Translations under genes and position numbers: made by a program | In this document: piece after piece, positions 2,101 through 48,674 of the stretch | How the letters are laid out: every line of letters begins with the position of its first letter | Numbering within the stretch: the stretch's first letter is position 1 | Notes under the pieces: generated by a model | What the model saw: the letters and a program-made list of their open reading frames with translations, nothing else | Databases searched by the model: none | What the model was told of the DNA's origin: nothing | Assembly: GCA_043813255.1 (NCBI GenBank) | Contig: JBDRLG010000126.1 | Coordinates: 2,882 to 66,881, forward strand | DNA: 64,000 nt | Reading direction: 5' to 3' | From: Candidatus Omnitrophota bacterium | Lineage (GTDB): Bacteria; Omnitrophota; Gorgyraeia; Gygaellales; Profunditerraquicolaceae

Positions 2101-2164
2101 TATAATTGTTTTGTATAAAGCTAATAATAATTCTAAATTTTTAGTTTGTCAAGGAAAATCCGCT

Positions 2165-10088: not shown

Positions 10089-10125
10089 GCTAATCCCCTT
10101 TTTTGTCCTAAATGTATATTTGGTT

Positions 10126-20337: not shown

Positions 20338-21324
20338 TTAAAGAAGGTTGATTTTTATTATATTAAGGATAGTATCCAGGTTAAATTGAAATAAATAATT
20401 AAGTTCGATAAAAGATGCGCACCAGCATTCTTTGCAAGTAATATAATTTAATTTGTCAAAAGAATTTTTAAAACCAAGTTCTATAACATTAGGAACGTTC
20501 TTAGAAATTATAAAATTTCGGCCACAACCATACATATCTCCATTTGGTTGCAGCCGGCATATAATTAAGCTATTCACGCATTTGATTTTTGTAGGATTCG
20601 GCCAATTATAAAGATATTTTAATCCTGTAATAGAATTAACTATATAGTTATTCTTTTTTTTCTCTAAAATAAGATTATTAATTGTTCTTTTGTAGTCAGT
20701 TTCTTCAGAAATAACCGGATTCATTTCTAATCCTGCAAGTGTACGTAATCTCGCGGGTTGGAAACTAACAGGAATTTTAAACTCTTTTGCTTTATTTAAA
20801 ATAAATTCAATTTTATCAAGATTAAATTTAGATAAAACAGTATTAAACCTGAGTTTTAGTTTTTTCTTCTTAGCTATTTCTACGGCTTCCATTATATTAT
20901 TGTACGAGCCGTTTCCTCGTATAAAATCATGAATTTTCTCCGGCCCATCAAAACTTAAAGTTAATAGATCAAGTCCGGTTAGTTGGTTAATTTTTTCTTT
21001 TACGAGTGAACCGTTAGAATTTATGTCGATTACCACATTATTTTTTTTTGCATGTTCAATGATTGTTCCTATATCATCTCTTAAAAGGGGATTTCCTCCT
21101 GTGAGATGCAGTACCTGTGTACCCGACTGTTTCATCTCAGTTATTAAAGATAAAATTTTCTCTGTTTCCATTTCAGTCGTTTTCATTTTCCAGCTATCGC
21201 AATATAAACACCTTTGATTGCATCTATATGTCAGCAACCAGCTAACAATTACGGGAGATCTCTTCTTTAATAAATTTGCTTCTAATAGTTTAAATGCTAT
21301 TGATATTTTTTTAGTTGTTTTCAT
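20338..21324 (-). CDS. Radical SAM protein with SPASM/twitch domain (member of 4-paralog family)
   Basis: 328 aa. LLTYRCNQRCLYCDSW is followed by a C-terminal Cys cluster CVNSLIICRLQPNGDMYGC...CKECWC. It is paralogous to 24603, 42527 and 46017 (shared LTGGNPLLRDDIG / SFDGPE..HDFIRG blocks). Confidence 0.85.
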   Translation of the reverse strand: MKTTKKISIAFKLLEANLLKKRSPVIVSWLLTYRCNQRCLYCDSWKMKTTEMETEKILSLITEMKQSGTQVLHLTGGNPLLRDDIGTIIEHAKKNNVVIDINSNGSLVKEKINQLTGLDLLTLSFDGPEKIHDFIRGNGSYNNIMEAVEIAKKKKLKLRFNTVLSKFNLDKIEFILNKAKEFKIPVSFQPARLRTLAGLEMNPVISEETDYKRTINNLILEKKKNNYIVNSITGLKYLYNWPNPTKIKCVNSLIICRLQPNGDMYGCGRNFIISKNVPNVIELGFKNSFDKLNYITCKECWCASFIELNYLFQFNLDTILNIIKINLL

Positions 21325-23370: not shown

Positions 23371-24597
23371 TTACCTAAAATTATTCAGTATATCAGCTAT
23401 ATACTTAATTTCTTTAGGATTTAAATAAGAATGAATAGGAATTTGTATGCTGTTTTCATATATTTGTTCACAAATAGGATATCTAGAAATATCACCATAA
23501 AGAGCAGCTACATTTCTCATGACATATTTGCCAGTATCAATTCCATTCTGCAATAGATATTTAGATAATTTATTCCTATTTTCAGATAAAAGGATATAAA
23601 AATAATAAATTGATCCCGGAATGCTTTTTATTTCTGTGTCTAATATGTCTTTTTTTAGGTATTTTTGTAATATTTTGATATTTTTAATTCTGTTTATATT
23701 TGAATAATCCAGTGATTTTAGTCTTAATAAAGCTATTGCCGCTTGCAGATTAGTTAAAAGCCTGATTTCAGTTTTTTTGTTCGTTATTTTTTTAAATGTT
23801 TTATTAAATGATATTAATAACAAATCTCTGTCACTGAAAAAAGAATTAATTAATAAAATAGGATAAATGAATAAACTGAAAATAAATTTATTGGCAGTTA
23901 TTGCTATTAGCCAAGTAATAAGTATTTCTTTTAACAAAATATTTAAACTGATTGGCTTACAGGAAGATAGATCTTTTTTTATTTTTTTAGCCGAGATTTC
24001 ATTATTACAAGCTACGCATCCTCCTCCGTAACTATGAAAATGTTTGGTAGAATTAAAGCTGAAATAAGAAAAATGCCCTAAGGAACCTGCTTTCCGTTTA
24101 TTATTTAATACTGCTCCCGGCGCGTGAGCACAATCTTCAATCACATAAATACCATGTTTATTACAGAATTCTAATAATTCTTCAATATCACAGATACTGC
24201 CGAAAATATGAGTGATTATAATTGCCTTTGTATTTGTAGTTATTTTTTTCCTTATCTGGTTTATATCAATGTTAAAGTCTTCTTTTCTGATATCACAAAA
24301 AACAGGTTTGAGCCCTTCATTGATAATTGCCCAAGGCACGCTTTCGTCAGTATAAGCAGGCAGTATTATTTCACTGTCTTGAGGAAAATTTAAAGTTTTT
24401 AGAATGAGGCGTAATGCAGACCTTCCGGAAGAAACTGCAAATACGTATTTTGTGCCTAAATAATCTGCAAATTGCTGTTCAAATAAAGCTGCATTTTGTC
24501 CTTTTATCGCTTTACCTGATAAAATAGTCCAGATAACTTTTTGTATTTCTCCTGTTATAATACTAATTTTTCTACGGGGAATTGGGTATATAAGCAT
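23371..24597 (-). CDS. DegT/DnrJ/EryC1/StrS-family PLP-dependent sugar aminotransferase
   Basis: 408 aa. The N-terminal region reads GKAIKGQNAALFEQQFADYLGTKYVFAVSSGRSAL. The PLP-lysine context is GSLGHFSYFSFNSTKHF (SFxxxK). Confidence 0.75.
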   Translation of the reverse strand: MLIYPIPRRKISIITGEIQKVIWTILSGKAIKGQNAALFEQQFADYLGTKYVFAVSSGRSALRLILKTLNFPQDSEIILPAYTDESVPWAIINEGLKPVFCDIRKEDFNIDINQIRKKITTNTKAIIITHIFGSICDIEELLEFCNKHGIYVIEDCAHAPGAVLNNKRKAGSLGHFSYFSFNSTKHFHSYGGGCVACNNEISAKKIKKDLSSCKPISLNILLKEILITWLIAITANKFIFSLFIYPILLINSFFSDRDLLLISFNKTFKKITNKKTEIRLLTNLQAAIALLRLKSLDYSNINRIKNIKILQKYLKKDILDTEIKSIPGSIYYFYILLSENRNKLSKYLLQNGIDTGKYVMRNVAALYGDISRYPICEQIYENSIQIPIHSYLNPKEIKYIADILNNFR

Positions 24598-24602: not shown

Positions 24603-25598
24603 TTATGTTCTTCTATAAATTTGTTTTAATGAATTAAATATAGAATCAAATTTAAAGCTGTAAAGAAAATTGAGCTCTATCTGAGCCGCGATCCAGCAAT
24701 TTAAACAGCTATAAGGTTCTAAACTTAAAAAAGCATTTTTGATTCCTTGATGAGAAATATTAATATCTTTTTTATTGGTCTCATCACCGCAACTTTTTAT
24801 AAATCCGTTATTTTCTATTCTGCAATAAATTTTTCCTGCGGCGCATGGTATTTTTGTCGGTTCTGGCCAGTTTAAAAAATGTTTTAAACAAAGTAAGGAA
24901 TTTCCTATGTATGGATGTTTATTTAATTTATAATTAATTAAAGATTGAATAATTTTTTGGTAATTATTTCTTTTATTTAATAATATTTGATTGGTTCTCC
25001 CGCTGCCACGGTTTAATATCCTCGCGGGTTGAAATACAGTAGCAATTTCAAGTTTTTTTGCCAGTTTTAAAATAAATTCTATAAAATCAAGATTAATTTC
25101 TGATAATACTGATGTGAATTTTATTTCCCATCCTTTGTTTTTTGCTATTTTTATTGCTTCCATAGTGTTTTTGTAAGCTCCTTTCCCTCTTATGCTGTCA
25201 TGAACATCGGGTGGGCCGTCTAATGAAAGGACAATCCTGTCTAAACCGGTTATTTGTTTTGCCCTGTCTGATAACAGATATCCACTGGTATTAATACTGA
25301 CATAAATATTCTTTTCTTTGCAATAATTTAGGATTATCCCTATATCATTTCTTAACATGGGTTCTCCGCCTGTAAAATTTATAATCTTTGTTCCCGCCTT
25401 TGTAAGCTGGTCTATAAAGGAGAGAACAGCTTTGGTGTCTAAATCCTTAGTAGGAACTTCATTTACTCCGCAGTAAAGGCAATTATAATTGCAATGATAT
25501 GTTATAGCCCAGCTGACAAAAAAGGGGATTCTTTTTTGTAATAATTTAGTTTTGATAAACAAGTCATATCCGGCTTTTAAAATATCAAATTTTTTCAT
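24603..25598 (-). CDS. Radical SAM protein with SPASM/twitch domain (paralog family)
   Basis: 331 aa. ITYHCNYNCLYCG is followed by the C-terminal Cys set CAAGKIYCRIENNGFIKSC...CLNC. It is directly adjacent to the DegT aminotransferase. Confidence 0.85.
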   Translation of the reverse strand: MKKFDILKAGYDLFIKTKLLQKRIPFFVSWAITYHCNYNCLYCGVNEVPTKDLDTKAVLSFIDQLTKAGTKIINFTGGEPMLRNDIGIILNYCKEKNIYVSINTSGYLLSDRAKQITGLDRIVLSLDGPPDVHDSIRGKGAYKNTMEAIKIAKNKGWEIKFTSVLSEINLDFIEFILKLAKKLEIATVFQPARILNRGSGRTNQILLNKRNNYQKIIQSLINYKLNKHPYIGNSLLCLKHFLNWPEPTKIPCAAGKIYCRIENNGFIKSCGDETNKKDINISHQGIKNAFLSLEPYSCLNCWIAAQIELNFLYSFKFDSIFNSLKQIYRRT

Positions 25599-25607: not shown

Positions 25608-27092
25608 CTATTGTTTTGTTTGTTCTGGAAGCATAGCTTCGCAAATGGTATTAGCAGCATTTAATGCTATTAAGTAATAGCCTTTGGCATTACAATGTCC
25701 ATCAGGAATAAAATATTCACTGTAATGGCCGTATTTTAAAGCATCCTTAAATATTATCAAATTATCTATGAATAGAATGTCGCTATATTCCGCGCACATT
25801 TTTTTAATCCCCTCTATATCTGAAAGAGGGTAAGACATTAATAGCAGGGGTATATGTTTATTGTTTGTAATTTTATAAATAATATCGATATTACTGCGAA
25901 GAACTTTATTATTTGTATTTTGGATTTTCTGGATTTCTTCAAAATATTGTTTAGCCTGAGGGTACCTGTTTTGTTTTTTATAACAATTAACTAACTGCAG
26001 GTACGCAAAATCATTTTCCGGATTTAATTTTATCACATCTTTATATAAATTTTCTGCTTTTACATATTGTTTTGTTTCCATATATATATCTGCCAATTCA
26101 ACCCATGCTTTTTCTGCTGAAGGAGTAGATTCTAAATATTTCTTATAGCATATTTCTGCTTCATTATATTTTTTTTGGCATTTGTAACATCTTCCCAGAT
26201 TTTTATAAATTGTAATAGATTTTGGATAAAACGCCAGTACTTTTTTATAATATTCTTCAGCCCGGGAATAATTTTTTAAAAATACATAACAATCTCCTGT
26301 CATGCTATAAGCTTTCTTGGCATAAATTAAATTCAGGTTTGTTGCAGCAGTATACATTTTTATAGCTTTTAAATATTCACTATGGTGCCTGTATAAATCT
26401 CCTAAATTCATATAATCATTGGCATCTTTTGGACCTTTTTTAGATATTATTTTCATGCCTGGTTCTTCTTTAGAAGTATTCTCTTTTATTGTATCAGTTT
26501 TATGGGGAATTAAAGTAATACTTGTTTTTTTTGTTTTTAATTCATCTGTTTCGGTTTTTTTGTTCACAAAATTTGTCCATAACCATTTCGCTAGTTTATA
26601 TATTCTCATTTTAAATAAATAAAACCGTATTTTATTTATCGAAAAATATTTAGAAGATAATGAAGTATATTCACTTGTATTTGCCCATTCGTATTCATGT
26701 TGTCTTAGTAATAGAATTATCATGTCCGGAGAATATTCTTTAATAGCATTAATTATTGAATTTGGCAGTTCTGGAGAAGAATAGCCTCCGGGAATCCCTT
26801 TATTAATAATTTTAAAACTTTTTCCCGGGTATTTTTTATTTAATATCTTTTCAAGCTGGCTGGGATAATCTTTGCCTATAGGAGCTCCTACTCCATATGT
26901 AAAAGAATCTCCCAGACATAATATGCGGTATGCAGAAGTATCGGAGACTTTATTTTTGTATGATTGTACTTGTAAAAGAATATAACCTATTGTTCGTAAT
27001 CCAAATTCCAAAATAAATAAACTTAGTATTAATCCGAATAGGAATAAAACTATTTTTTCTTTATTTGATGTAAAAACCTTCTTTTTAGCCAA
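25608..27092 (-). CDS. SGNH/GDSL hydrolase-fold protein with embedded TPR repeats, membrane-anchored
   Basis: 494 aa. The N-terminal TM anchor is followed by GDSL block I (ILCLGDSFTYGVG). Several TPR-like repeats are inserted in the middle (YMNLGDLYRHH..., YKNLGRCYKCQKKYNEAE...). The C-terminal DGHCNAKGY matches the catalytic DxxH block. Confidence 0.55.
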   Translation of the reverse strand: MAKKKVFTSNKEKIVLFLFGLILSLFILEFGLRTIGYILLQVQSYKNKVSDTSAYRILCLGDSFTYGVGAPIGKDYPSQLEKILNKKYPGKSFKIINKGIPGGYSSPELPNSIINAIKEYSPDMIILLLRQHEYEWANTSEYTSLSSKYFSINKIRFYLFKMRIYKLAKWLWTNFVNKKTETDELKTKKTSITLIPHKTDTIKENTSKEEPGMKIISKKGPKDANDYMNLGDLYRHHSEYLKAIKMYTAATNLNLIYAKKAYSMTGDCYVFLKNYSRAEEYYKKVLAFYPKSITIYKNLGRCYKCQKKYNEAEICYKKYLESTPSAEKAWVELADIYMETKQYVKAENLYKDVIKLNPENDFAYLQLVNCYKKQNRYPQAKQYFEEIQKIQNTNNKVLRSNIDIIYKITNNKHIPLLLMSYPLSDIEGIKKMCAEYSDILFIDNLIIFKDALKYGHYSEYFIPDGHCNAKGYYLIALNAANTICEAMLPEQTKQ

Positions 27093-29152
27093 AATATGCC
27101 TCCTAAGGAACAGATTAGAATTATAAGAGAGATCCCCGCGCCTAACTTAAAAGAAAAAGGCGAATAGATAAAATTAACAGTATATTGTCCGGGTTTATCT
27201 ATATAAACAGCCCTGAAAAAATAATTAGCACGGTAAATCTCGGTGCGTTTATCGTTTATATAAGCTTTCCAGCCGGGATAATGTGTGTCTGAAAGTACTA
27301 AGAATCCTTTAGAATTAGTTTTTAAACTGATTGATACTTTGCCGGGCTGGTATTTAGTGATATACGTATCAGATTTTAATTCAAGGGAAATATCTACCGG
27401 ATTTAATCCGGTGATTTTTTTCTCTAATATAACCGTCTTTTTAAGGTCAAAAGCTTTATCTTTTAAAGTATCCAATATTTGCTGTTTATCTTTTATAAAC
27501 ATGGCTTGATTAACAAAGAATACTCTCTGTAAGCTGTTTTTAAATTGGTAGCATGCAATTATATTGTCTTCGTATATTTTTTCAAATAAAGGACTGTTTT
27601 CATAATAATTTTCTATTTCTGGAAGTATTTTTTTATTTTCTTCATCTTCCTCTTCTGGCTTATTTAATATCACATATTTAGTGCCGCTGGCTTTTAAGTA
27701 ATTAGGGTATAAAAGGAAATTATAATACGCCTCTTCTTTAATTAAGGATATATTCAGGTTTGTTTTAGTAAATTCAAGATAACGTAAAAGTATTAAATTG
27801 CTTTGTCCGCTTGAGAAATAAGATTTCCCTTTGATAAAATATGTGTACTCAGAGTTTAGAAAAATTCGGCTCCTATCTTTAATTTCTAGTTTATCTAGTA
27901 ATTTATTGACACTTAAGTAAATTTGAAGGTCATTATTATTGTTATATGAATCCTTATATTTCTCTGAATAATTTTTTTGCCATGACAAAGAGATTGAAAA
28001 CAAAACCAATGTCAATAAAATTAATTTTATTATTTTAAACTTTATTTTTTCAATTCCGAATCCGGATAGTAGCGCTATAGAAAAAATAAAAATGTAGCTG
28101 GCGCGGATAGGCTTTTTAAAAAAAGAGAAAAAAGGCAGGTTTAAATACAGATAATTTGTTATAAAGTTCCGGCTGCTTAAAACAAGAAAAAGAATTGTGA
28201 TACATAAGTAGAAGTAATAATATTTAGGCTTATGCTTATTGAATAACGGAAAAAATGCCAGTAAAACCGCTGTTAAGCCGATAAATATATCCGGTTTATC
28301 GGTATTTAAAAAAATTATGGCCTTTAGGTATTCTATATTTAAATAATTAGAGTTATACATTAAATTATAATCTTTAATATAATATCTGGCTGAATTTTGG
28401 GCTAATTCCATTGTAGGTAAAAACTGGATTGAAAATATCCCTATGGAAATCAATATGATGAGAATAAAGGCAAAAAGTAGATTCCTTATAGTATAAAAAT
28501 TCTTAGTATCTTTCATGATAAAAAAAGATTTTAAAATAAAATAAGCTGTAAATAACAGAAAAAAATAATAAGAATATTGAATCCCGCCGCCTAATAATTG
28601 CATGCCATAAAAAATTCCTGTTAAGATTGCATATTTCCAGTTGATTAGTTTATTTAATGCTTTATTAAGAAAGAATAAAATCAAAGGAAACCAAATATAA
28701 GTATTAAGTATATTTGGTTCATATAGTCTGATCATCGCGAATATTATGCCTGCCGTCAAAGCGCCGGTTATTTTTATATTAATACTGCGGGCATATATAT
28801 ACATAAAGAATCCCGCAGTTAAGAAATAAAAGATATACATAAAATTGCTTACGGCAATATTTGACAGCGGAGTGTAGAACGGTATATAGATTCTTAAAAG
28901 AGTAAACGGAGATAATAAATTATAATAGTCCATATCGGCGAATAAAGGGCACCCGCAGGAAAAATAAGGGTTCCATAAAAAATATGCGGATTTTATAAAG
29001 GAAGAAACTATGTGGGAATGTACAAAAAAAACATCTGCCGGAAGATTATCAGCAAAATATTTAGCTTTGAATATAATATCTTTGAATAAAAAAATAGATA
29101 CCGCTATAAAAAGCAAAAAAATCAGAAGTTTTTTGAAGTATTTATAAAGCAT
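27050..29152 (-). CDS. YfhO-family GT-C membrane glycosyltransferase (paralog 1 of 3 in tandem array)
   Basis: 700 aa with about 13 TM helices. The C-terminal periplasmic domain carries LVLSDTHYPGWKAYINDKRTEIYRANYFFRAVYI, the YfhO C-terminal signature. That terminus is nearly identical at DNA level to 33107-33700. Confidence 0.7.
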   Translation of the reverse strand: MLYKYFKKLLIFLLFIAVSIFLFKDIIFKAKYFADNLPADVFFVHSHIVSSFIKSAYFLWNPYFSCGCPLFADMDYYNLLSPFTLLRIYIPFYTPLSNIAVSNFMYIFYFLTAGFFMYIYARSINIKITGALTAGIIFAMIRLYEPNILNTYIWFPLILFFLNKALNKLINWKYAILTGIFYGMQLLGGGIQYSYYFFLLFTAYFILKSFFIMKDTKNFYTIRNLLFAFILIILISIGIFSIQFLPTMELAQNSARYYIKDYNLMYNSNYLNIEYLKAIIFLNTDKPDIFIGLTAVLLAFFPLFNKHKPKYYYFYLCITILFLVLSSRNFITNYLYLNLPFFSFFKKPIRASYIFIFSIALLSGFGIEKIKFKIIKLILLTLVLFSISLSWQKNYSEKYKDSYNNNNDLQIYLSVNKLLDKLEIKDRSRIFLNSEYTYFIKGKSYFSSGQSNLILLRYLEFTKTNLNISLIKEEAYYNFLLYPNYLKASGTKYVILNKPEEEDEENKKILPEIENYYENSPLFEKIYEDNIIACYQFKNSLQRVFFVNQAMFIKDKQQILDTLKDKAFDLKKTVILEKKITGLNPVDISLELKSDTYITKYQPGKVSISLKTNSKGFLVLSDTHYPGWKAYINDKRTEIYRANYFFRAVYIDKPGQYTVNFIYSPFSFKLGAGISLIILICSLGGIFWLKRRFLHQIKKK

Positions 29153-31023
29153 TATTTCATAAAAACTTTATGCCATGTTAAAAATGTATATATTGTCCAT
29201 AGCTTACGGCTGTTGTCGAATTTATTGTTAAGGTGGTCTTTTATTAATTGCTTGATATAATAAGGGTTAAAATATTTTGTTTTAATAGTATTTTGTTCCG
29301 ATAACACATCTAATATTATATTTTTCTTTTTCTGCCTTATCCAGATTTTATCCGGGCTGCTTAAGCCATGTTTGGATTTTTTAAGTATTTTTTGAGGTAA
29401 TTTTCCCCGCATCGCTTTTCTTAATATATATTTTGTTTTAAAGTTCTTAATTTTCATTTCCGCGGGAATCGCTGCCGCAAACTCCACTAAATCTGAATCT
29501 AAATACGGAGTTCTTACTCTAAAAGAATTCATTTTGTTTAATGAGTTTTCAAAAAATAATATATTATCAGCCAGGTTAATTTTTAAGTCATTATGCAAAG
29601 CAGCATCCAGCCCGTAATTGTTTTTAAATTTATTTTCAGCTATTTTATTTTTATAATTTAAAAAAGAATCTTTAAATATCCTGTCTTCCAATAAGGTATT
29701 TTTTAAAAGTTCTTTCTTGTCTTCTTCCGTGAATATTTCTCTCCAATGGTAATGCACCCTTTCCGCAGGAAGAGTTGAGCCGTAAATAAAGTCACGGATT
29801 TTATAATTAAGGCTGATCGGTTTATAAGAATCAGGTATTAATTGTGTTAAAGGAGAAACAATGTATTTTTTTAAAAAATCAGGTATATTTTTATAAAGCG
29901 GAATCAGGATATCTGCCAGATGAGTAAGATATCCTGCGAAAAGTTCATCTCCTCCTTCCCCTGAAAAAGATATGTCCACCTCTCTGCTTGTATAATTGAC
30001 TAGAAAATAATAAGGAATAATCGTAGATTCAGAAATGATATCTCCTAAATTCCAAATAATATCCTCATAGGAACTAAGCGGATTATCCGGCAATATGTAA
30101 TGACGATGTTTGGTATTATAATGTTTGGAGACAATTCCTGCATATTTTGTTTCATCGTAATATTTTTCTTTAAATCCGATACTAAAAGTATTTATTTGAG
30201 ATTTATACATTTCAGCTATGGTATGAGCGATACTGCTTGAATCTAATCCTCCGCTTAAAAAAAGGCCCCAAGGGCGGCTGTTGGGCAGCCTTCTCTTTAC
30301 AGCTTTGCATATTAAATCCAGCGAATTTTCTATGTAATATTCTTCTGAAAATGTTTTATTCTGATAATTAAAGTTATTCTGCCAGTATTCTTTTGTCTGT
30401 ACGCCGGCATTCGATATGGTTGCTAAATATCCTGGAGGAAGTTTATTGATATTATTAAATATTGTTTTAGGAGAAGGTACATAACCGAAAGATAAATAAT
30501 CATAAAAACTATTGACGTCCATTGTTTTTGAGTATTCTTTGTCTTGTAAGATGGCTTTTATATCAGAAGAAAAAATAATGCTGTTTTTACAGACAGCATA
30601 ATAAATTTGTTTTACTCCCAGTTTATCCCGGACCAAAGTTAAAATTCTCTTGTTATTATCCCAGATAGCCAGGGAAAATATGCCGTCTAATTTATTGAAA
30701 TTTTCAGTCCCTTCTTCATATAAATGTATAATAATTTCCATATCTGAGAAACTTTTAAAAGTATGGCCTTTTTTAACAAGGTTTTCTTTCAGCTCAGCAT
30801 GGTTGTAAATTTCACCTTCAGCGGCTAAATAAACAGAATTATTTTCATTATGTAAAAGTTCAGCGTTAATAGAATTGTATAAGCATAAGCCGATATTATT
30901 TTTAACAAGGACGTTTCTATCATGGTAACTATTTTTCAATTTTAATTTTTCAGACATATCTAAAAAAGATTCTTTGACAAGTTTTTGTTTAGGATCAAGG
31001 TTATATTTTCCATAAATCAGCAT
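29152..31023 (-). CDS. Asparagine synthetase B-family amidotransferase lacking the N-terminal catalytic cysteine
   Basis: 623 aa. The synthetase-domain PP-loop is FLSGGLDSSSIA. The glutaminase-domain blocks AAEGEIYNHAELKENL and LDGIFSLAIWD..LVRDKLGVKQIYYA are present. However the N-terminus is MLIYGKY rather than MCG(I), with a GGAGA RBS 8 nt upstream of this ATG, so the class-II GATase nucleophile Cys is absent. Confidence 0.8.
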   Translation of the reverse strand: MLIYGKYNLDPKQKLVKESFLDMSEKLKLKNSYHDRNVLVKNNIGLCLYNSINAELLHNENNSVYLAAEGEIYNHAELKENLVKKGHTFKSFSDMEIIIHLYEEGTENFNKLDGIFSLAIWDNNKRILTLVRDKLGVKQIYYAVCKNSIIFSSDIKAILQDKEYSKTMDVNSFYDYLSFGYVPSPKTIFNNINKLPPGYLATISNAGVQTKEYWQNNFNYQNKTFSEEYYIENSLDLICKAVKRRLPNSRPWGLFLSGGLDSSSIAHTIAEMYKSQINTFSIGFKEKYYDETKYAGIVSKHYNTKHRHYILPDNPLSSYEDIIWNLGDIISESTIIPYYFLVNYTSREVDISFSGEGGDELFAGYLTHLADILIPLYKNIPDFLKKYIVSPLTQLIPDSYKPISLNYKIRDFIYGSTLPAERVHYHWREIFTEEDKKELLKNTLLEDRIFKDSFLNYKNKIAENKFKNNYGLDAALHNDLKINLADNILFFENSLNKMNSFRVRTPYLDSDLVEFAAAIPAEMKIKNFKTKYILRKAMRGKLPQKILKKSKHGLSSPDKIWIRQKKKNIILDVLSEQNTIKTKYFNPYYIKQLIKDHLNNKFDNSRKLWTIYTFLTWHKVFMK

Positions 31024-33131
31024 AATTTATTCTCCAATTTGGTTTTATTTTTAAGATAAAGGATACTTATTATACAACAAATTAGGGTTATAATAGAAAT
31101 AATAGCACCTAGTTTAAAAGCAAAAGGCGAATAGATAAAGCTAATAGTATATTCACCGGGTTTGTCTATATAAATAGCCCTGAAAAGATAGTTAGCCCGG
31201 TAAATCTCGGCTTGTTTATTGTTTACATAGGTTTTCCATCCGGGATAATAAGTATCTGAGAGCACCAAAAATCCCCTGGAGTTGGTTTTAAGGCTGATTG
31301 ATATTTTGCCGGGCTGGTAATCAGTAATCTGTGTATTGGATTCTAATTTAAGAGAGGTATCTTTTTGACTTAATCCAGAAATTTCTTTTTCCAATATAAC
31401 TGTTTCTTTGGGGTTAAAAGCTTTATCTTTAAAAGTATCCAGTATTTCCTGCTTATTTTTTATAAATAAGACTTGATTAACAAAGAATGCTCTTTGCATG
31501 CTGTCTCTGAATTGATAGCCAATGATTGCAGCATCTTCATATATTTTCTTAAATAACCGGTTGTTATCATAATAATTTATTATTTTCAGCAGTATCTGCT
31601 TGTTTTCATTATCCTCTTCTTCTGTTTTATTTAATACTATATATTTGGTATTACTAGCTTTTAAATAATTAGGATACAAAAGAAAATCATAATATAAGTT
31701 ATCTTGTATTTTATCAATATTGATGATAGAAGTCTTACTGAATTCAATATTCCTGGCGGGAATAAGATCACTTTGTCCTCCTAAAAAATAAGGGATATGA
31801 TTTAATAAATAAATACTTTTTTCATCAAAATCCAGATATACCCTGTATTTGTCTATGTCTGGAATGTCTTTTAATAAATTGTTAATATCATCGTAAAAAA
31901 TAAAAGAATCTTCAGATTGAGATTTAGAATATAAGGATGAAAATTCTGTTGAATGGAATATATTCCAAGCATAATAAATAGATATAATAACCGAAAGAAA
32001 TAATATCAATTTTATTATTTTATTCCTGATATTTTGTAGTCCTATCCCTGCCATAATTGAGACAGAAAAAATAAAAAATAAAGTAGACCTTATTGGAGAA
32101 ATAAAAAATGAGAAAGAAGGCAGATGGTTATATAAGAACCTGGTTAATATACTGGGAATGCTGATAAAAATAAAAAATATCGCAATTGAAAGATAAAAAT
32201 AATAGAATTTATTTTTATTTTTGTGTAATAATGGAGTTAAAGCAAGAATAATAGTAGGAATACCGGTAAAACTGAACATTTCACCTTTTCTTCCAGAGAA
32301 AAATATTTTTGATAAATTATTTAGTGTTTCTTGACTGTAACTTATATTAAAATCTTTTAAATAAAATCTAACTGAATGTATTGTTAATTCTATTGTGGGT
32401 AAAAGCTGAATAGCGGCTATACTTATGCCAGTTAAGAAAATAGTCAAAAATAAGAAACAAGATTGTTTTAAGTATGTCATATTTAAAGGAATATTCTTGA
32501 ATTTTGAAAAATATCTGAAAATAAAATATAGTATAAAAAATACAGAAAAATAATATGAATATTGCGGCAGACTAGTTGCAATTAAAATGCCGTATAATAA
32601 ACCCGTAATTATGCCATATTTCCAGTTTATTTTTTTCTCTGCTATGGATTTTTCAAACATAAAAAGAATGATAGGTATATAAATATATCCATTAACTGAA
32701 GGAATTTTATATCTGCGTATAATACCGAAAATAACAGCACTAAGGAAAGCGGATAATTTATTCAAACCTATATTTTTAGCATATAAATACATAAAAAGGC
32801 AGCATAGCGGATAAGAAATAATATAAGCTAAATTAAATGCTATGAAAGTAAATGAAGGGAAAAAATGTTGTATAAATACTCTTAAGATCGTAAAAGGACT
32901 TAATAAACAATAACATATATCAGCAAATAAAGGAAAACCGCAAAAATAATAAGGATTCCATAAAAAAAATGAATGTTTTATTAGAATTAAAGGGATATAA
33001 CAATGTGCATAAGGATCTGCGCTTGGCATAAGATTCCTATATAGCATGCTTTTTGACAGAATATCTTTAAATATAAAAATGCCAATAATGAAAAAAAACA
33101 GAAATATCAGCCAGTTTTCTTTTTTAGCCAA
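31017..33131 (-). CDS. YfhO-family GT-C membrane glycosyltransferase (paralog 2)
   Basis: 704 aa. The C-terminus reads LVLSDTYYPGWKTYVNNKQAEIYRANYLFRAIYI. The N-terminal WNPYYFCGFPLFAD block is shared with the other YfhO paralogs. Confidence 0.7.
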   Translation of the reverse strand: MAKKENWLIFLFFFIIGIFIFKDILSKSMLYRNLMPSADPYAHCYIPLILIKHSFFLWNPYYFCGFPLFADICYCLLSPFTILRVFIQHFFPSFTFIAFNLAYIISYPLCCLFMYLYAKNIGLNKLSAFLSAVIFGIIRRYKIPSVNGYIYIPIILFMFEKSIAEKKINWKYGIITGLLYGILIATSLPQYSYYFSVFFILYFIFRYFSKFKNIPLNMTYLKQSCFLFLTIFLTGISIAAIQLLPTIELTIHSVRFYLKDFNISYSQETLNNLSKIFFSGRKGEMFSFTGIPTIILALTPLLHKNKNKFYYFYLSIAIFFIFISIPSILTRFLYNHLPSFSFFISPIRSTLFFIFSVSIMAGIGLQNIRNKIIKLILFLSVIISIYYAWNIFHSTEFSSLYSKSQSEDSFIFYDDINNLLKDIPDIDKYRVYLDFDEKSIYLLNHIPYFLGGQSDLIPARNIEFSKTSIINIDKIQDNLYYDFLLYPNYLKASNTKYIVLNKTEEEDNENKQILLKIINYYDNNRLFKKIYEDAAIIGYQFRDSMQRAFFVNQVLFIKNKQEILDTFKDKAFNPKETVILEKEISGLSQKDTSLKLESNTQITDYQPGKISISLKTNSRGFLVLSDTYYPGWKTYVNNKQAEIYRANYLFRAIYIDKPGEYTISFIYSPFAFKLGAIISIITLICCIISILYLKNKTKLENKLC

Positions 33132-35188
33132 AATATGCCTCCTAAGGAACAGATTAGAGTTATAAGAGATATCCCTGCGCCTAATTTAAAAGAAAAAGGC
33201 GAATAAATGAAATTAACAGTATATTCGCCGGGTTTATCAATGTAAACAGCCCTAAAGAGATAATTAGCGCGGTAAATTTCAGCGGCGTTACCGTTTATAT
33301 AAGCCTTCCAGCCGGGATAATAGGTATCGGAAAGCACAAGAAAGCCTTTAGAGTTGGTTTTAAGGTTAATTGATACTTTTCCGGGTTGATAATCAGTAAT
33401 ATATGTTTTAGATTCTAATTTAAAAGGATTGTTTATTGAATTCAATCCGGCGGGTATTTGCTTTTCCAGTATAACTGCTTCTTTGGGTTCAAACATATTG
33501 TCTTTTAGAGTATCTAGTATTTGCTGTTTGTCTTTTATAAGTACAGCTTTATTGACAAGCACTACCCTTGCCATGCTGTCTTTAAAAGAATATCCTTTGA
33601 TTAAATTATCTTCATATATTTTTTCAAATAAAGGACTGTTTTCATAATAATTTTCTATCTTTGGTGTCATTCCTTCATTTTTCGCGTTCCCTTCTTCTAT
33701 TTTATCAAATATTATATATTTAGTGCCGCTAACTTTTAAGTAATTAGGGTATAACAGAAAATTATAATAAGCATATGCTCTCAATTTATCAATATTGCAA
33801 GTATTGGTTTTACTGAATTCCAGATAATGAGAAAGAACTAAATCACTAGAACCGCAAGAAAGATAAAATTTATATTTGGCCCAATTAACATCGTCTTGAT
33901 TTATAAATATCCTATAGTTCGTCAGAATCGGCTCTACAGTGTATAATTTTTTACTAAGTGCCTGATATCGTTTTTGGTTTGCGGAAAATTCAGTTATTTT
34001 ATTATAATGCCTGTCATATATACCGATTTTCCAAAAAGGATATATTTGCAATAAAAAAATGAATAATAGTAATATTTTTAAAGAAGTTGATTTTAATTTT
34101 TCTATCCCTGCCCCTGCTAAGATAGCAACTGAAAAAATACAAATATAGAATGCCCGTAAGTGTTTTTGTAAAAAGTTAAATGCCGGCAGATGATAGTATA
34201 AAAATTGAGAGACCGGGTGTTTACTGCTGATAATAAAAAAAATAAAGATAATAGACAGATAAAAGTAATAATAAGGAGTCTTTTTTCTGTAAAACACAGG
34301 TATTAAAGATAACATAATAGTCATTATTCCTAAGAAAACACGTGATCGGGAATAGTCAAATAATATTATGCTTTTTAAATAATCAAGGTTTAAATACTGG
34401 TAAGCATAGGATAAGTTGAATTTATTTAAATAAAACCGGGAAGATTCTTTTGCCAGTTCAATTGTCGGCAGTATTTGTACTGCGCTTATGCCAAACCCAA
34501 TAATAAAAATAAGAAAAAGCTTCAATATCTTTAGGTCAATTTTTTTAAATTGTAAGTAGAACCTGAAGATAAAATAAATACAGAGAAAAATTGAAAAATA
34601 ATATAATTCTTGTGTGGCTCCGCTTAAAAATTGCAAGGCATAAAAAATACCGGCTAAAATAATGTAATAAGTATTAAGGCATGTTTTTTGGAAAGACTTT
34701 TCGATGAAAAACAATATTATGCCGACCCAAACCCGTGCGGCAAATTCATGTGTCCCGCCTGCATCGGTACAGAAAAAAATATTATAAGTATAGATTAAAC
34801 CGCTTAATACAGCCCCTATCTTTCCTATGTTTATAGCTCTGGCATATAAATAAAGAAAGAATCCCGCTAGAGAAAAATGTAAAATATATATAAAATTAAA
34901 AGCAATAAAATTAGGTATATGAAATAGATATTGCAGAAGGAATATTAAAATCGTAAAGATATTTAAGAAATGTTTTCTATTAATTTCAGCTAAGTGAGGA
35001 AATCCGCAATATATATAAGGGTTCCAGAGTAAAGAACCTTGTTCTTCTAATTCGACTATAGTTCTTGGATAAATATAGTTTTTTTGTGAATTATTATTAA
35101 GGGTAATAAAAAAATCCTTATTAAAGAATATTACTGATATTAATACGAAAAATATAAAAATTAATATATTTTGATGAAGATTTTTCAT
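33107..35188 (-). CDS. YfhO-family GT-C membrane glycosyltransferase (paralog 3)
   Basis: The C-terminus LVLSDTYYPGWKAYINGNAAEIYRANYLFRAVYI is about 85-90% identical to the 27050 paralog. I chose the start at MKNLHQNILIF (35188) because the track start 35269 would overlap the carbamoyltransferase by 85 nt. Confidence 0.7.
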   Translation of the reverse strand: MKNLHQNILIFIFFVLISVIFFNKDFFITLNNNSQKNYIYPRTIVELEEQGSLLWNPYIYCGFPHLAEINRKHFLNIFTILIFLLQYLFHIPNFIAFNFIYILHFSLAGFFLYLYARAINIGKIGAVLSGLIYTYNIFFCTDAGGTHEFAARVWVGIILFFIEKSFQKTCLNTYYIILAGIFYALQFLSGATQELYYFSIFLCIYFIFRFYLQFKKIDLKILKLFLIFIIGFGISAVQILPTIELAKESSRFYLNKFNLSYAYQYLNLDYLKSIILFDYSRSRVFLGIMTIMLSLIPVFYRKKTPYYYFYLSIIFIFFIISSKHPVSQFLYYHLPAFNFLQKHLRAFYICIFSVAILAGAGIEKLKSTSLKILLLFIFLLQIYPFWKIGIYDRHYNKITEFSANQKRYQALSKKLYTVEPILTNYRIFINQDDVNWAKYKFYLSCGSSDLVLSHYLEFSKTNTCNIDKLRAYAYYNFLLYPNYLKVSGTKYIIFDKIEEGNAKNEGMTPKIENYYENSPLFEKIYEDNLIKGYSFKDSMARVVLVNKAVLIKDKQQILDTLKDNMFEPKEAVILEKQIPAGLNSINNPFKLESKTYITDYQPGKVSINLKTNSKGFLVLSDTYYPGWKAYINGNAAEIYRANYLFRAVYIDKPGEYTVNFIYSPFSFKLGAGISLITLICSLGGIFWLKKKTG

Positions 35189-36885
35189 TTTTTTAGCATG
35201 TAATTTCCTAATACTAATATATCTATCCGGCTGTTTAAATAACAGTTTATCGCATCTGCCGGCGAACAAACAATGGGCTCATCGCCTCTGTTAAAAGAAG
35301 TATTTAATACCATAGGAATTCCTGTTAAACGGTAAAATTCATTAATCAATTTCCGGAATTTAGGGTTGTTTTGTTCATCGATGCATTGAACTCTAATAGA
35401 GTTATCTATGTGGATAACTGCCGGAATCTTTCTTTTCTTTGTTTTACATACTTTGTAAACAAATTGCATATATGGAGAACCGGAAGGACTGTTAAAATAT
35501 TCCTGAAGGTATTCTGATAATATAGTTACCGCGAAGGGATTAAATTCTCTGCGGTTTTTTATCTCTAACAGAACATTTTTTAAATGCAGGTTTCCGGGAT
35601 GGGCTAATATGCTTCTATTGCCCAGTGCCCGCGGGCCAAACTCCATCCTTTCCTGAAACCAGCCTATGATTTTATTCAAAGATAATAATTCAGCCGTTGT
35701 TTTTTCAATGTTTTTACAATATGTATAATTTAATCCGGATGAATTTATGGCTTTTTGTATCTCTATATCAGCGTAATCCGGTCCGAGAAAGTCTGTTTGA
35801 GGCAGAAGTATTCTTTTTGCAGAAGTTTTTTTATAATAGTAATACAGAGCTCCTCCTATAGAACAGCCTGCATCTGAAGGGTTCGGCTGAATATATATAT
35901 TCTTAAAAGGGGTATTTTCTTTCAATTTGCCATTCATAACAGCATTCAGCATTATCCCACCGGAAAGACATAAATTATCAATTTTAGTTTCTTGGTAAAA
36001 ATAATTAGTCATATATAGAACAATGTCCTCTAGCCTCTTTTGTAAACTCGCGGCGATATTATATTCTTTTGTTGTTATTGGTGTATTATTGATTCTGGGA
36101 TAACCAAAAATTCCGGTGAGTTTTTTAGAAGAAAAGGTTGTTTTATTGGGATAATTTAACCGGCCGTTTTTATAATCGAAGTAATCCAAATCTAAATAAA
36201 ACCCTCCCTTGGAAGATAATCTAATGATTTTTTTAAATTCATTATAATATTCAGGCTGCCCAAAGGCAGCTAATGCCATAATTTTAGATTCATCTTTTCC
36301 CGGCCGAAAACCTAAAAATGAGGTAAAAAGGGAATATACAAAACCTAAAGAATGCGGCACCCGTATTCTTTTCCAAGGGAATATTTTATTATCTTTGCCT
36401 ATCCATAATCCGCAGGAGTCTAATTCCCCGCGTCCATCAAGAGTAACTATGTTGGCTTTTTTATAGGGAGATTGAAAAAACGCGCCAGCGGCATGCGCTA
36501 TATGATGTTCTACGCAGGCAAATTCGCTTTTTGTCGCCAAAGATAAAAGATTATTGAAACGGCGTTTTATTTTTAAACTATTATGCTTAAATTCATCCCG
36601 GTTATTAAGATAAAAAAATATTGAATCAGGAAATAATCGTAATCCAAGGTAAATTTTTGCTAAAGTATTAAGCCATATACTATAGGGATAGATAATAAAG
36701 TCTATTTCGGATGGGGCTATCCCGCTTTTTTTAAAACAAAATTCAACGGACTTTTCCGGAAAAATATCAGTATATTTTATTCTGTTTAATCGTTCTTCCT
36801 GTACCGCGGCTAATATTCGGCCGTCTGAAATAATTGCGGCGGCAGAAGGCAATTCACTTTCAAAGATGATACCTAATATATTCAT
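35185..36885 (-). CDS. NodU/CmcH/TobZ-family O-carbamoyltransferase
   Basis: 566 aa. The N-terminal ASKHA-like motif is MNILGI...AAIISDGRILAAVQEERLNRIKYT. Also present: HHIAHAAGAFFQSPYKKANIVTLDGRGE. The C-terminus has a YrdC-like domain. Confidence 0.85.
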   Translation of the reverse strand: MNILGIIFESELPSAAAIISDGRILAAVQEERLNRIKYTDIFPEKSVEFCFKKSGIAPSEIDFIIYPYSIWLNTLAKIYLGLRLFPDSIFFYLNNRDEFKHNSLKIKRRFNNLLSLATKSEFACVEHHIAHAAGAFFQSPYKKANIVTLDGRGELDSCGLWIGKDNKIFPWKRIRVPHSLGFVYSLFTSFLGFRPGKDESKIMALAAFGQPEYYNEFKKIIRLSSKGGFYLDLDYFDYKNGRLNYPNKTTFSSKKLTGIFGYPRINNTPITTKEYNIAASLQKRLEDIVLYMTNYFYQETKIDNLCLSGGIMLNAVMNGKLKENTPFKNIYIQPNPSDAGCSIGGALYYYYKKTSAKRILLPQTDFLGPDYADIEIQKAINSSGLNYTYCKNIEKTTAELLSLNKIIGWFQERMEFGPRALGNRSILAHPGNLHLKNVLLEIKNRREFNPFAVTILSEYLQEYFNSPSGSPYMQFVYKVCKTKKRKIPAVIHIDNSIRVQCIDEQNNPKFRKLINEFYRLTGIPMVLNTSFNRGDEPIVCSPADAINCYLNSRIDILVLGNYMLKK

Positions 36886-37083: not shown

Positions 37084-38970
37084 TTATTTGTTATTTAGTA
37101 CTAAGTATACATATATAGCAATAATTCCTAATAGACTGCCTATTAATCCAATTAATAAATTATGCGGGAAATAAGTTAATTTTATTAATCCAGCTGTTTT
37201 TTTATCCATATCAATAGATAGTAATCCGGTATAATTACCTATTTTTCCTTTATTGCTTTTCCATCCGGTATGATAATTTTGGTTAATAATCAATTTATCA
37301 GGGGTGGTTATTTTAGTATCTATAATTATTTTATTGGGGCTAAAATATAATAGATTAGCTTGGTTTTGTTCTTGTAGAAAGTATATTTCACCTTTATATT
37401 GAGAGTTAATTTTTAATTCAGGCATTATTTTATTGAAATCCATGATATGGTTAAAGACGGTATCGGCCTGTTGCTTGTTAATAAAATACTTTGGGAGAGT
37501 ATAGTGGTCTATGTCTATTGTTGGATAGAAATTAACTATCCCTATATTTTGTTGAAATAACGGATAAAACCAAAAGTCATCATTTTGCTTTTTATTTAAA
37601 TGATTGATCTCGTCCGGCCTTTTATAAAATTCTATTTGGAAAAAATCAGCATTATTTGTTTTATATATCTTTTCTTTTGGTAAATAACTGATTCTATTAA
37701 GGATTGAATAACTTAGTCTGCTTACTTCATAAATGGAGATTATTGCAAGTAGGATAAATATATATTTTAAAATATTTGTTTTTTTGATTTTATCGGTTAA
37801 TGAAAAACTTTGCCCGGCAATAAGAGCTATAAGGAAAAAAATATAAGGTAAAAAATATTTATCCGGTTTTACTATGCCGCGTGTAAAATTATTAATATTC
37901 CATAAAGGTTTATATATATCTATTAAACTATTGGGCCCGAACATTAAAATAGTAAAAAACAATAAAAGGATAAAATAGATGATACTTCTTTTAAAGTAAG
38001 TCAATAATGACACGAACAATAAAAAAATAGTTATATAGCCAAAATATATAGACAGGTATTCCGGTTGGATGTTTTTCTTAAATAAGCTATCGTATAATTT
38101 TTTTACAGTAAAACATCTTTCTGGAAGTGTCTCTTCTATCCTTCCTTCTTTATCTATTGCGGTTATCCCGTAAGATTTCTCTACTTCAGGAGAATTATGG
38201 AAATATTGATAATTTCTGGAATGTAATAAATCAATCATGGGGATAATTTTAATACTGCTTATTAATAGAGAAAATATTATTAATAAGATAAACTTTTTGA
38301 AATATCTATAGTTTAAAAATGAGCTATCCGTATGAGTAAAATTAAATGTTTTTAAAACTACAAATAGCAGGATAAATAAACATACGATAATAAAATTTAG
38401 GCCGGCGGACAATATATAAAAACTTAAAAAAATTGAAGCAAGCGGCAGATATTTAGGCCTTGAAAATGATTTAATAAAAAAAGAGATAAGAAATGGTAAA
38501 AAACAAATAGATAAATAATATATGTCACTGTCAATTATTCTATAAGCGAACCAGGGGCAAATTATAAATAAAACGGAAGAATAAATAGCTCCCAAATAAT
38601 TATATTTAAGTAAGTTTTTTGTTAAATAAAACATTCCAAGGGCTCCGATTAGAAGATAAGCTATTACAATCAATTTCACCCCGATAATTTCTTTAAATAA
38701 TCCTATGAATATGCCAAATGGATTTAAATTCCAGCCTTCAATGTCTCCTATGACTGGATATCCTCCTGAAAAAAGATAGGTTCTAAAAGGGAGTTGATGA
38801 AAATTTGATAGTGATTGGCTTAGTGGGATTGCTAAAGTATAATAGCGTCCCCATCCTTGTAGAGGTTGTTCGATATTTCTAATAAGCGGGAAATAAGTGA
38901 ATATTAATATAGTTATTAAGAGTAAATAACTTATCGTGTTAATTTTAGTTATATGTAGTTTTTTTAACAT
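37084..38970 (-). CDS. YfhO-like GT-C polytopic membrane protein (paralog pair A)
   Basis: 628 aa, polytopic. The C-terminus LIINQNYHTGWKSNKGKIGNY resembles the YfhO C-terminal motif. It is paralogous to 38945-40906, sharing YHQLPLRT...SGGYP near the N-terminus. Confidence 0.55.
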   Translation of the reverse strand: MLKKLHITKINTISYLLLITILIFTYFPLIRNIEQPLQGWGRYYTLAIPLSQSLSNFHQLPFRTYLFSGGYPVIGDIEGWNLNPFGIFIGLFKEIIGVKLIVIAYLLIGALGMFYLTKNLLKYNYLGAIYSSVLFIICPWFAYRIIDSDIYYLSICFLPFLISFFIKSFSRPKYLPLASIFLSFYILSAGLNFIIVCLFILLFVVLKTFNFTHTDSSFLNYRYFKKFILLIIFSLLISSIKIIPMIDLLHSRNYQYFHNSPEVEKSYGITAIDKEGRIEETLPERCFTVKKLYDSLFKKNIQPEYLSIYFGYITIFLLFVSLLTYFKRSIIYFILLLFFTILMFGPNSLIDIYKPLWNINNFTRGIVKPDKYFLPYIFFLIALIAGQSFSLTDKIKKTNILKYIFILLAIISIYEVSRLSYSILNRISYLPKEKIYKTNNADFFQIEFYKRPDEINHLNKKQNDDFWFYPLFQQNIGIVNFYPTIDIDHYTLPKYFINKQQADTVFNHIMDFNKIMPELKINSQYKGEIYFLQEQNQANLLYFSPNKIIIDTKITTPDKLIINQNYHTGWKSNKGKIGNYTGLLSIDMDKKTAGLIKLTYFPHNLLIGLIGSLLGIIAIYVYLVLNNK

Positions 38971-40906: not shown

Positions 40907-40914
40907 ATAATTCC

Positions 40915-42534: not shown

Positions 42535-43507
42535 ATAATTTCTTTATATTTAAAAACTCATCCAGATTAAATTTTAGGAAACAATTCATTTCCAATGTGC
42601 TGGTGCACCAGCAGCCTTCACATTTTGAAACAGGTAAATTAAGATGCGTTTCTTCGAGAAAAGGAGTTAAACAATTAGGGGCTTTCGTTTTCTCCATCAG
42701 CATCGTGCACGGGTATAAATCTCCTTCGGAAGAAATACAATAAGTTAATCTTCCTCCATAACAGGTCATTTTATTATAAGAAGGCCAGTCATATAAATAC
42801 TTTAACGCTGTTAAAGAATTTATGATGTATTTATTGTTTTTTTTTAATAAAATTAGTTTTTTAATTGTTTTTCTATAATTCTCTTTATCAGGAAAAAGGT
42901 GATTAATATTTGCCTCTCCGGAATGAACGTAACTCAAGGGTTGAAATTTTACTTTTACATTTAGTTCTCCGGCCTTTTCTAAGATAAAATCAACAGAATC
43001 CAAATTATATTTTGATAAAGTAGTATTAAATTTCGTGACTAAGCAATGCCTTTGTGCCAATTTTACAGCAGCTATTGTATCTTTATACGAGCCTTTCCCT
43101 CTGATAAAATCATGTATATCTTCCGGCCCGTCAAAACTCAGCTTAAGAATATCTAAATGTTGTAATTCTTCTATCTTAAGAGGCAATAATGAACCATTAG
43201 ATGTTATTCCGGTAAAAATATTCTTACTGTGACAGTAATTTATAATCTCTCCTATATCTTCTCGTAATAAAGGTTCCCCTCCGCTGAATATGATTATTTT
43301 TGTTCCTTTTTTAGAAAATGTATTAATAATTGATAATATTTCTTTAGTGTTTAGTTCTTTGCAGGGCGTATTCCATCTAGAGCAGTATTTACATTGCCGA
43401 TTGCATCTGTTAAGCAGATGCCAGCTGATAATTAAAGGTATCTTTTTGTTAAACAGCTTTACTTTGATGACTGCTTTTAATGAATCCCATTTAATTCTTA
43501 AGTTCAT
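42527..43507 (-). CDS. Radical SAM protein with SPASM/twitch domain (paralog family)
   Basis: 326 aa. LLNRCNRQCKYCSRW is followed by the C-terminal Cys set CYGGRLTYCISSEGDLYPC...CEGCWC. Confidence 0.85.
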   Translation of the reverse strand: MNLRIKWDSLKAVIKVKLFNKKIPLIISWHLLNRCNRQCKYCSRWNTPCKELNTKEILSIINTFSKKGTKIIIFSGGEPLLREDIGEIINYCHSKNIFTGITSNGSLLPLKIEELQHLDILKLSFDGPEDIHDFIRGKGSYKDTIAAVKLAQRHCLVTKFNTTLSKYNLDSVDFILEKAGELNVKVKFQPLSYVHSGEANINHLFPDKENYRKTIKKLILLKKNNKYIINSLTALKYLYDWPSYNKMTCYGGRLTYCISSEGDLYPCTMLMEKTKAPNCLTPFLEETHLNLPVSKCEGCWCTSTLEMNCFLKFNLDEFLNIKKLFD

Positions 43508-48672: not shown

Positions 48673-48674
48673 TA

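Follow-up and report, generated by a model that had tools for sequence, protein, structure and literature searches.

The gene at positions 29152..31023 of the minus strand in a 64,000-nucleotide stretch of contig JBDRLG010000126.1 (assembly GCA_043813255.1, Candidatus Omnitrophota bacterium), here called the window, encodes a protein of the asparagine synthetase B (AsnB) family in which the N-terminal glutaminase-type domain has lost its catalytic residues and the C-terminal synthetase domain has kept its own. We hold with moderate confidence that the protein is a glutaminase-dead, ATP-dependent amide-forming AsnB paralog, that it acts on a carboxylate of a glycan precursor, and that its nitrogen does not come from its own N-terminal domain. 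An earlier note made from the sequence had considered glutamine hydrolysis improbable, and this is borne out by the loss of Cys1, Arg49 and Asn74 of the glutaminase site in all three members of the clade of this protein (the window protein and its two orthologs). On the evidence of these residues the protein is almost certainly unable to hydrolyse glutamine.

The open reading frame (ORF) of 623 amino acids (aa) starts at an ATG and its translation begins with MLIYGKYN, confirming the MLIYG which the earlier note had read in place of MCG. A GGAG ribosome-binding site is located 8 nucleotides 5' of the ATG. In frame the upstream translation reads GE-stop-IM, and this TAA, two codons ahead of the ATG, means that a Cys-Gly cannot be gained from any upstream start, whatever its codon. 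A protein identical to the product of the gene is present at NCBI (P0001), from a Candidatus Omnitrophota metagenome-assembled genome. Two orthologs were found in independent Logan assemblies, one with 80% identity starting with MLIYGKY and one with 66% identity starting with MAIYGKY, and the search for an upstream Cys at both ortholog loci found none available. A sequencing error is excluded, because the same N-terminus is found in the two independent assemblies. Both checks which the earlier note had named, for an upstream start and for a sequencing error, were therefore run and were negative.

That the gene encodes a normal glutamine-dependent enzyme, obscured by a misplaced start or an error of sequencing, could be argued from annotation, as the identical protein is labelled 'asparagine synthase (glutamine-hydrolyzing)' at NCBI and the cutoff of TIGR01536 is passed (339.8 bits, cutoff 267.1). 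The match to TIGR01536 begins at profile position 66, and the cutoff is cleared via the synthetase half alone, which makes the NCBI name probably an over-annotation; the glutamine-hydrolysing function named by the model is, as judged from the residues, contradicted by the missing glutaminase site. With the stop two codons upstream, the N-terminus repeated in two other assemblies, and Arg49, Asn74 and the HRGPD loop gone as well, the artefact is refuted and hardly deserves any credence.

The glutamine site of the family consists of Cys1, Arg48/49, Val52, Asn74, Gly75, Glu76 and Asp96/98 (PMC6748925). The clade was aligned with E. coli AsnB and human asparagine synthetase (ASNS); a check of the reference sequences, covering the human one, found it to match 22 of the 22 residue identities numbered in two papers. 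A large automatic alignment misplaced the region 384-400, for which L-INS-i alignments and ungapped motif comparison were used, and the counts given below for positions 74 and 398 are alignment-based. In the window protein and in both orthologs there is no Cys1, the HRGPD loop can no longer be recognised, and the strand carrying Arg49 (RRLSIID) is shortened by 7 residues and devoid of Arg. The oxyanion hole residue Asn74 is replaced by Glu69 (30817..30819) in the window protein and by Asp in the 66% ortholog. Gly75, Glu76 and Asp98 are retained as Gly70, Glu71 and Asp94. The statement of the earlier note that the blocks of the glutaminase domain are kept holds for these three positions, but not for the HRGPD loop, Arg49 and Asn74, which are lost in addition to Cys1. 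In 236 Cys-bearing relatives Arg49 is found in 235 and Asn74 in 234, the glutamine-site positions being conserved in 233-235 (about 99% invariant) and Asp98 in at least 99%; with such invariance the pattern of losses in the clade is far from chance.

Of the features of a functional class II glutaminase of the N-terminal nucleophile (Ntn) type, the nucleophile Cys and the Arg49/Asn74 network are missing and the fold is present. Pfam GATase_7 is matched at residues 58-160 (E = 9.4e-31), beginning only at profile position 17, and the confident AlphaFold2 model shows the Ntn alpha-beta-beta-alpha fold, matching the N-terminal domains of AsnB, GlmS and PurF. Without glutaminase catalysis, the domain persists in folded form as a structural module.

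The synthetase half is intact, as the earlier note had stated for its PP-loop SGGLDSS. Pfam Asn_synthase (PF00733) is matched at residues 236-619 with E = 3.5e-75, and the E. coli AsnB positions Glu348, Asp351, Glu352, Tyr357, Asp384, Lys429 and Lys449 are all kept in the alignment, so that the combination expected of a PF00733-type enzyme (SGGxDS with Glu348, Asp351, Lys429 and Lys449) is complete. The residues of the SGEGGDE motif form the acidic cluster which binds the protonated amine beside the acyl group, and the equivalent of human Lys466 contacts the phosphate of the acyl-adenylate (PMC6748925). Judged by residue conservation, the C-terminal domain has every residue for ATP binding and acyl-adenylate formation. 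The AlphaFold2 model has two domains (mean predicted local distance difference test score 91.8, predicted template modelling score 0.92), and the solved structures nearest to it in fold are TsnB9, E. coli AsnB, human ASNS, beta-lactam synthetase and carbapenam synthetase. The protein has no predicted hydrophobic segments, indicating that it is soluble.

The ratio of nonsynonymous to synonymous substitution rates (dN/dS), calculated for the window gene and its 80% ortholog, is 0.12 for residues 201-623, 0.12 for residues 61-200 and 0.43 for residues 1-60, the region in which the lost catalytic loops fall. This pattern indicates a functional gene in which there is a reason for the retention of the N-terminal core, relaxation being confined to the loops that were once catalytic. 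A pseudogene was considered and is ruled out by the purifying selection (dN/dS about 0.12).

The contact zone between the two domains has changed as well. In the motif FFENSLNKMNSFR human Arg403 is replaced by Phe491, Ala404 by Glu492, Asp405 by Asn493 and Glu414 by Arg502, and outside the motif the tunnel-lining Met344 of the human enzyme is replaced by Tyr338. Across the clade the equivalent of Glu414 (E. coli Glu398) is Arg, Gln or Val. In 206 canonical relatives the motif positions show K in 182, D in 204 and, at the equivalent of Glu414, E in 204. Roles of the human interface and tunnel residues are described (PMC6748925, PMC10245805): Glu414 is reported as 'absolutely conserved' and lies less than 5 Å from the glutamine pocket (PMC6748925), and Asp405 is the partner of the tunnel gate (PMC10245805).

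An exhaustive profile search against 1.84 billion representatives placed the clade in one 50%-identity cluster of three sequences (1315 bits), the next match scoring 493 bits. The state of position 1 was surveyed in the top 149 representatives and the first 120 hits. Cys1 is missing from 18 full-length proteins, which have Ser, Gly, Ala, Leu, Pro or Asn in its place, and a neighbour-joining tree of the synthetase domain distributes them over about nine lineages. Asp or Glu is present at position 74 in all 18 Cys-less proteins and in only 2 of the 236 Cys-bearing ones (Fisher p about 1e-25, uncorrected for phylogeny). The two exceptions, P0142 and P0236, bear the Cys and yet have Asp74, and may be intermediates; they suggest that the change of Asn74 comes before the loss of Cys1. 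The interface residue Glu398 is frequently lost in the Cys-less relatives, which family-wide include P0121, P0123, P0143, P0159, P0173, P0176, P0202, P0220, P0222, P0223, P0225, P0227, P0240, P0260 and L060. In a set of 80 GTDB genomes, picked by motifs outside the N-terminal domain, 78 proteins start with MCG and the sole full-length Cys-less protein has Asp74. Of the by-products of the analysis, this recurrent coupling of the loss of Cys1 to an Asp or Glu in place of Asn74 is the one of most interest.

Further searches added little to this distribution. A profile search with the degenerate N-terminal domains alone returned short fragments and no new full-length members, a single-protein scan of the GTDB species genomes gave no match, the source genome included, and a metagenome scan gave only relatives of at most 34% identity. 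The literature searched gave no relevant account of AsnB homologs without Cys in the synthesis of polysaccharides. As to the neighbourhoods, other Cys-less lineages are likewise located in glycan loci, together with glycosyltransferases of the C fold, glycosyltransferase family 2 (GT2), DegT and radical S-adenosylmethionine (SAM) genes. P0159 comes after PMT_2, DegT, GT2 and flippase-like genes and is followed at once by a B12-radical SAM gene and a radical SAM/SPASM gene, P0121 and P0005 are directly 5' of B12-radical SAM genes, P0240 is found between a GT2 gene and a PMT_2 gene, and P0260 follows a carbamoyltransferase gene. Canonical MCG paralogs of Omnitrophota are found in a glycan locus as well as in a housekeeping neighbourhood.

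Three side observations concern these relatives. In three other lineages (L002, L004, L010) a B12-radical SAM gene directly follows the Cys-less AsnB-like gene. P0005 (L002 663..2552; 36% identity to the window protein) starts with MNSICGRF, and an ATT codon directly precedes the TGC of its Cys; if translation began at this ATT, a rare start, the N-terminus would be a Cys, but Arg49 and Asn74 are lost regardless (FEGIIYD) and the site is degenerate either way. In P0121, P0240 and P0173 the SGEGxDE of the synthetase domain is changed to CGDSxDE or CAGAADT (alignment columns 355-365), and by these substitutions the three proteins, unlike the clade of the window protein, may have lost or altered adenylation.

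A single long surface-glycan locus, mainly on the minus strand, makes up the window. It includes genes for a WecA-type initiating transferase, a Wzm/Wzt exporter, several GT2 proteins, a Wzy_C protein, a DegT aminotransferase (23371..24597), a carbamoyltransferase, a YdjC-like protein and a flippase-like protein. That the gene sits within an array of YfhO genes, as noted earlier, is correct, and the coupling is translational: its ATG overlaps the stop codon of the upstream YfhO-like gene (ATGCTGA), and its stop codon overlaps the start of the downstream YfhO gene (TAATG). The order YfhO-like, AsnB-like, YfhO-like and TPR/SGNH is conserved at the locus of the 66% ortholog (L001), which is surrounded by DegT, radical SAM, PMT_2, GT2 and YdjC genes. 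Promoter and terminator scans around the AsnB-like gene gave nothing better than shuffled sequence. The coordinates of the features are collected in Table 1.

Table 1. Features of the AsnB-like gene, its product and the adjoining genes in the window.
Feature	Position	Strand	Basis or remark
AsnB-family two-domain protein, 623 aa	29152..31023	-	ORF list, Pfam; stop codon 29152..29154
Start region	31027..31035	-	GGAG ribosome-binding site 31032..31035, in-frame TAA 31027..31029, ATG 31021..31023
Degenerate N-terminal (Ntn glutaminase-type) domain, residues 1-205	30409..31023	-	Alignments with E. coli AsnB and human ASNS
PP-loop ATP pyrophosphatase synthetase domain, residues 206-623	29155..30408	-	Pfam Asn_synthase, conserved catalytic positions
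PP-loop SGGLDSS, residues 257-263	30235..30255	-	Clade-invariant; aligns with E. coli S234-S240
SGEGGDE, residues 354-360	29944..29964	-	E. coli Ser346-Glu352; human Ser362, Glu364, Asp367, Glu368
Rewired interface/tunnel motif, residues 490-502	29518..29556	-	Alignment, motif comparison with 206 canonical relatives
Lys551	29371..29373	-	E. coli Lys449, human Lys466
Membrane-anchored SGNH/GDSL-like and TPR protein, last of the four-gene block	25608..27092	-	Pfam TPR families, Lipase_GDSL_2
Downstream YfhO membrane protein, 700 aa	27050..29152	-	Pfam YfhO, E = 1.8e-19
Upstream YfhO-like membrane protein, 704 aa, about 8 hydrophobic segments	31017..33131	-	Paralog of two Pfam-YfhO genes, 45-48% identity
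Third YfhO paralog, 720 aa	33107..35269	-	Pfam YfhO, E = 7.8e-14

As we propose, the cytoplasmic AsnB-like enzyme would adenylate a carboxylate carried by a precursor of the surface glycan which this locus builds, and the adenylate would then be converted to an amide by a nitrogen nucleophile not derived from glutamine hydrolysis in the same polypeptide. The most likely nucleophile would be free ammonia. AsnB mutants without the cysteine retain ammonia-dependent activity, which makes free ammonia the simplest donor; it had been suggested as the nitrogen source by the earlier note and can reasonably be inferred. The acyl substrate is probably other than aspartate, since the equivalent of human Arg403 (E. 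coli Arg387) is a Phe. Other parts of the earlier proposal fared less well. For an amidated uronic acid there is no direct support, as a search of those ORFs of the window that have 150 aa or more found no UDP-sugar 6-dehydrogenase (UDPG_MGDP_dh). The same holds for the partner enzyme, since neither these ORFs nor the genes called up to 10 kb from the 66% ortholog were found to include a class-I glutaminase. No exosortase was found among the same ORFs of the window.

Several points weigh against an ammonia-using enzyme that amidates a glycan-precursor carboxylate. The window is without an obvious gene for the formation of a sugar carboxylate, be it a UDP-sugar 6-dehydrogenase or a nonulosonic-acid synthase. 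The charged Glu492 and the bulky Tyr338, both lining the tunnel, could block ammonia entering via the old glutamine site. Outside the window, the genome could carry the gene for a partner glutaminase or for a canonical AsnB paralog that works in trans. Finally, the conservation of the context rests on very few genomes, the clade comprising three sequences.

The state of the tunnel is where a different nucleophile has to be considered. The polar and bulky substitutions leave room for another amine reaching the adenylate directly, and the enzyme could then be an amide ligase joining a carboxylic acid to an amino sugar, for instance the product of DegT, or to an amino acid, with an N-acyl or amino-acid-amide decoration of the glycan as outcome. 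By the substitutions Glu414 to Arg, Asp405 to Asn, Ala404 to Glu and Met344 to Tyr (human numbering) the enzyme seems to have lost its internal passage for ammonia, the amine-binding acidic cluster SGEGGDE is kept (PMC6748925), the window encodes a DegT-family aminotransferase, as do L001 and L010, and family members with other nucleophiles exist, including TsnB9, the best match in the PDB. However, DegT genes are common in glycan loci generally, and our literature search found no AsnB-family sugar N-acyl ligase. In TsnB9, moreover, the nucleophile still comes from a working glutaminase-type domain. We regard this ligase as rather unlikely. An enzyme that is glutamine-dependent in trans, served by a separate glutaminase or by an MCG-type AsnB as heterodimer partner encoded outside the window, appears improbable to us: residues 61-200 are as constrained as the synthetase domain, which fits a retained protein-protein or interdomain interface, and canonical MCG paralogs do exist in other Omnitrophota, but no glutaminase gene was found among the window ORFs of 150 aa or more or within 10 kb of the 66% ortholog, and the network at the tunnel entrance is altered.

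Two further explanations carry less weight. The protein might have no catalytic activity at all and serve as a scaffold or regulator of the neighbouring membrane glycosyltransferases, one domain being already dead and the SGEGxDE motif being altered in the Cys-less P0121, P0240 and P0173; the invariance of the synthetase catalytic residues in the clade of the window protein, together with the strong purifying selection on this domain, makes such a pseudoenzyme quite improbable. An intramolecular amide-forming cyclase, of the type of beta-lactam synthetase, carbapenam synthetase or the lasso-peptide cyclases, comes to mind as it is these enzymes that are known, among the relatives of AsnB, for a glutaminase domain that is missing or does not function, and they are among the fold matches and the weak sequence matches. 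Beta-lactam synthetase has a catalytic Tyr348-Glu382 dyad, and position 348 is Glu here, as in AsnB. The lasso-peptide cyclase model NF033535 is matched with 205.4 bits, against a cutoff of 525, and there are no precursor or leader-peptidase genes nearby. As beta-lactam pathway genes are likewise missing and the gene belongs to a glycan locus, the cyclase was already disfavoured and is very improbable indeed. The ammonia-using, glutaminase-dead amide-forming enzyme is the reading that we retain.

Other parts of the window also merit description. Nine polytopic membrane proteins resemble glycosyltransferases of the C fold (GT-C); they are encoded at 15628..17232, 27050..35269, 37084..42534 and 47512..50339, and comprise the three YfhO-like proteins (45-48% identity), two related to them, a further pair (46% identity) and two PMT_2 proteins. 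This set is an unusually dense array of candidates for glycosyltransferases of the periplasmic face. The locus is also interspersed with genes for radical SAM proteins: five paralogs of about 330 aa at 20338..21324, 24603..25598, 42527..43507, 46017..47033 and 62558..63685, four of the five sharing 36-42% identity, and two B12-binding ones at 18898..20316 and 44576..46015. At the edge of the locus (876..2668) a Peripla_BP_2 periplasmic binding protein and a corrinoid adenosyltransferase (CobA/CobO/BtuR) are encoded, which may supply cobalamin to the B12-radical SAM enzymes. The secretin at 8193..10154 (Secretin, Secretin_N, STN) carries a C-terminal TonB_C-like domain, an unusual fusion, and adjoins a protein similar to component C of type II secretion systems (T2SS-C) and an AAA ATPase. 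At 52754..58278 a 1296-aa fusion of GT2 and glycosyltransferase family 4 (GT4) domains adjoins the Wzt ABC-transporter ATPase with its C-terminal Wzt_C domain, which suggests an ABC-transporter-dependent O-polysaccharide pathway.

The protein represents a clean example, backed by selection, of an amidotransferase that shed its nitrogen-supplying function and kept that half as a structural module. The principle is already seen in beta-lactam and carbapenam synthetases, and the variant described here, maintained by selection in a glycan locus, is new. The general understanding of the AsnB family is not changed by it. In the about nine lineages the loss of Cys1 always goes with Asp or Glu in place of Asn74, which provides a simple sequence rule for recognising such proteins. 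A wider view, unlikely though it seems to us, would be that glutaminase-dead AsnB paralogs are not cases of isolated decay but constitute a recurrent convergent class in which the old glutamine pocket was repurposed, for example for the capture of ammonium or of an amine, and which together with B12-radical SAM and GT-C modules installs an undescribed glycan amide. The identity of the substrate would reveal a chemical decoration on the glycan at the surface of Omnitrophota, a phylum without cultured members about whose envelope next to nothing is known.

Among the known systems, E. coli AsnB and human ASNS share with the window protein the two-domain fold, the PP-loop, Glu348, Asp351, Glu352, Lys429 and Lys449. 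They differ from it in having the glutaminase nucleophile, Arg49 and Asn74, in the interface residue Glu398/Glu414, which is Arg here, and in the residue binding the aspartate carboxylate (E. coli Arg387, human Arg403), which is Phe here. The synthetase domain of the window protein is longer than theirs by an insertion of about 70 residues, as is usual in the long paralogs, and the genomic context is glycan synthesis and not amino-acid synthesis. Beta-lactam and carbapenam synthetases are members of the AsnB family in which the N-terminal domain has no Cys nucleophile and is structural, and in which the synthetase domain forms an acyl-adenylate and an amide; in contrast, the sequence match to beta-lactam synthetase is weak (1jgt, E = 5.5e-8), position 348 of the window protein is Glu, the loss of the glutaminase in the window protein is independent, and no genes of these pathways are present in the window. 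The hydroxyamidotransferase TsnB9 (PDB 7ylz), which belongs to a secondary-metabolite pathway, is the best solved match in sequence and fold and is likewise a long AsnB paralog acting on a carboxylate other than that of aspartate, but the identity in the fold alignment is 18%.

The WbpS-type proteins are the closest in setting. WbpS, WbqG and PGN_1234 convert sugar uronic acids to uronamides according to genetic evidence (PMC7468200, PMC6025236), and like the window protein they are long AsnB paralogs (about 630 aa) of surface-glycan loci. The best NCBIfam score of the window protein is indeed the 357.5 bits obtained with TIGR03108 (eps_aminotran_1, the XrtA/PEP-CTERM amidotransferase of WbpS/WbqG type), which misses the cutoff of 816.9; relatives scoring 595-680 bits with this model all start with MCG and are aligned from profile position 1. 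The earlier note had cited WbpS as an example of a Cys-less paralog, which does not agree with the description of the WbpS-type proteins as glutamine amidotransferases (PMC3684757) nor with the MCG of the top TIGR03108 relatives, the N-terminus of WbpS itself not having been read. The window protein differs from the WbpS type by lacking Cys1, Arg49 and Asn74, by a window without a WbpO-type dehydrogenase, and in the synthetase pocket, where Lys387 is replaced by Phe, Asp389 by Asn and Arg390 by Ser. By analogy, and short of a demonstrated membership in the WbpS family, the AsnB-like protein plausibly works like a WbpS-type enzyme with another source of nitrogen.

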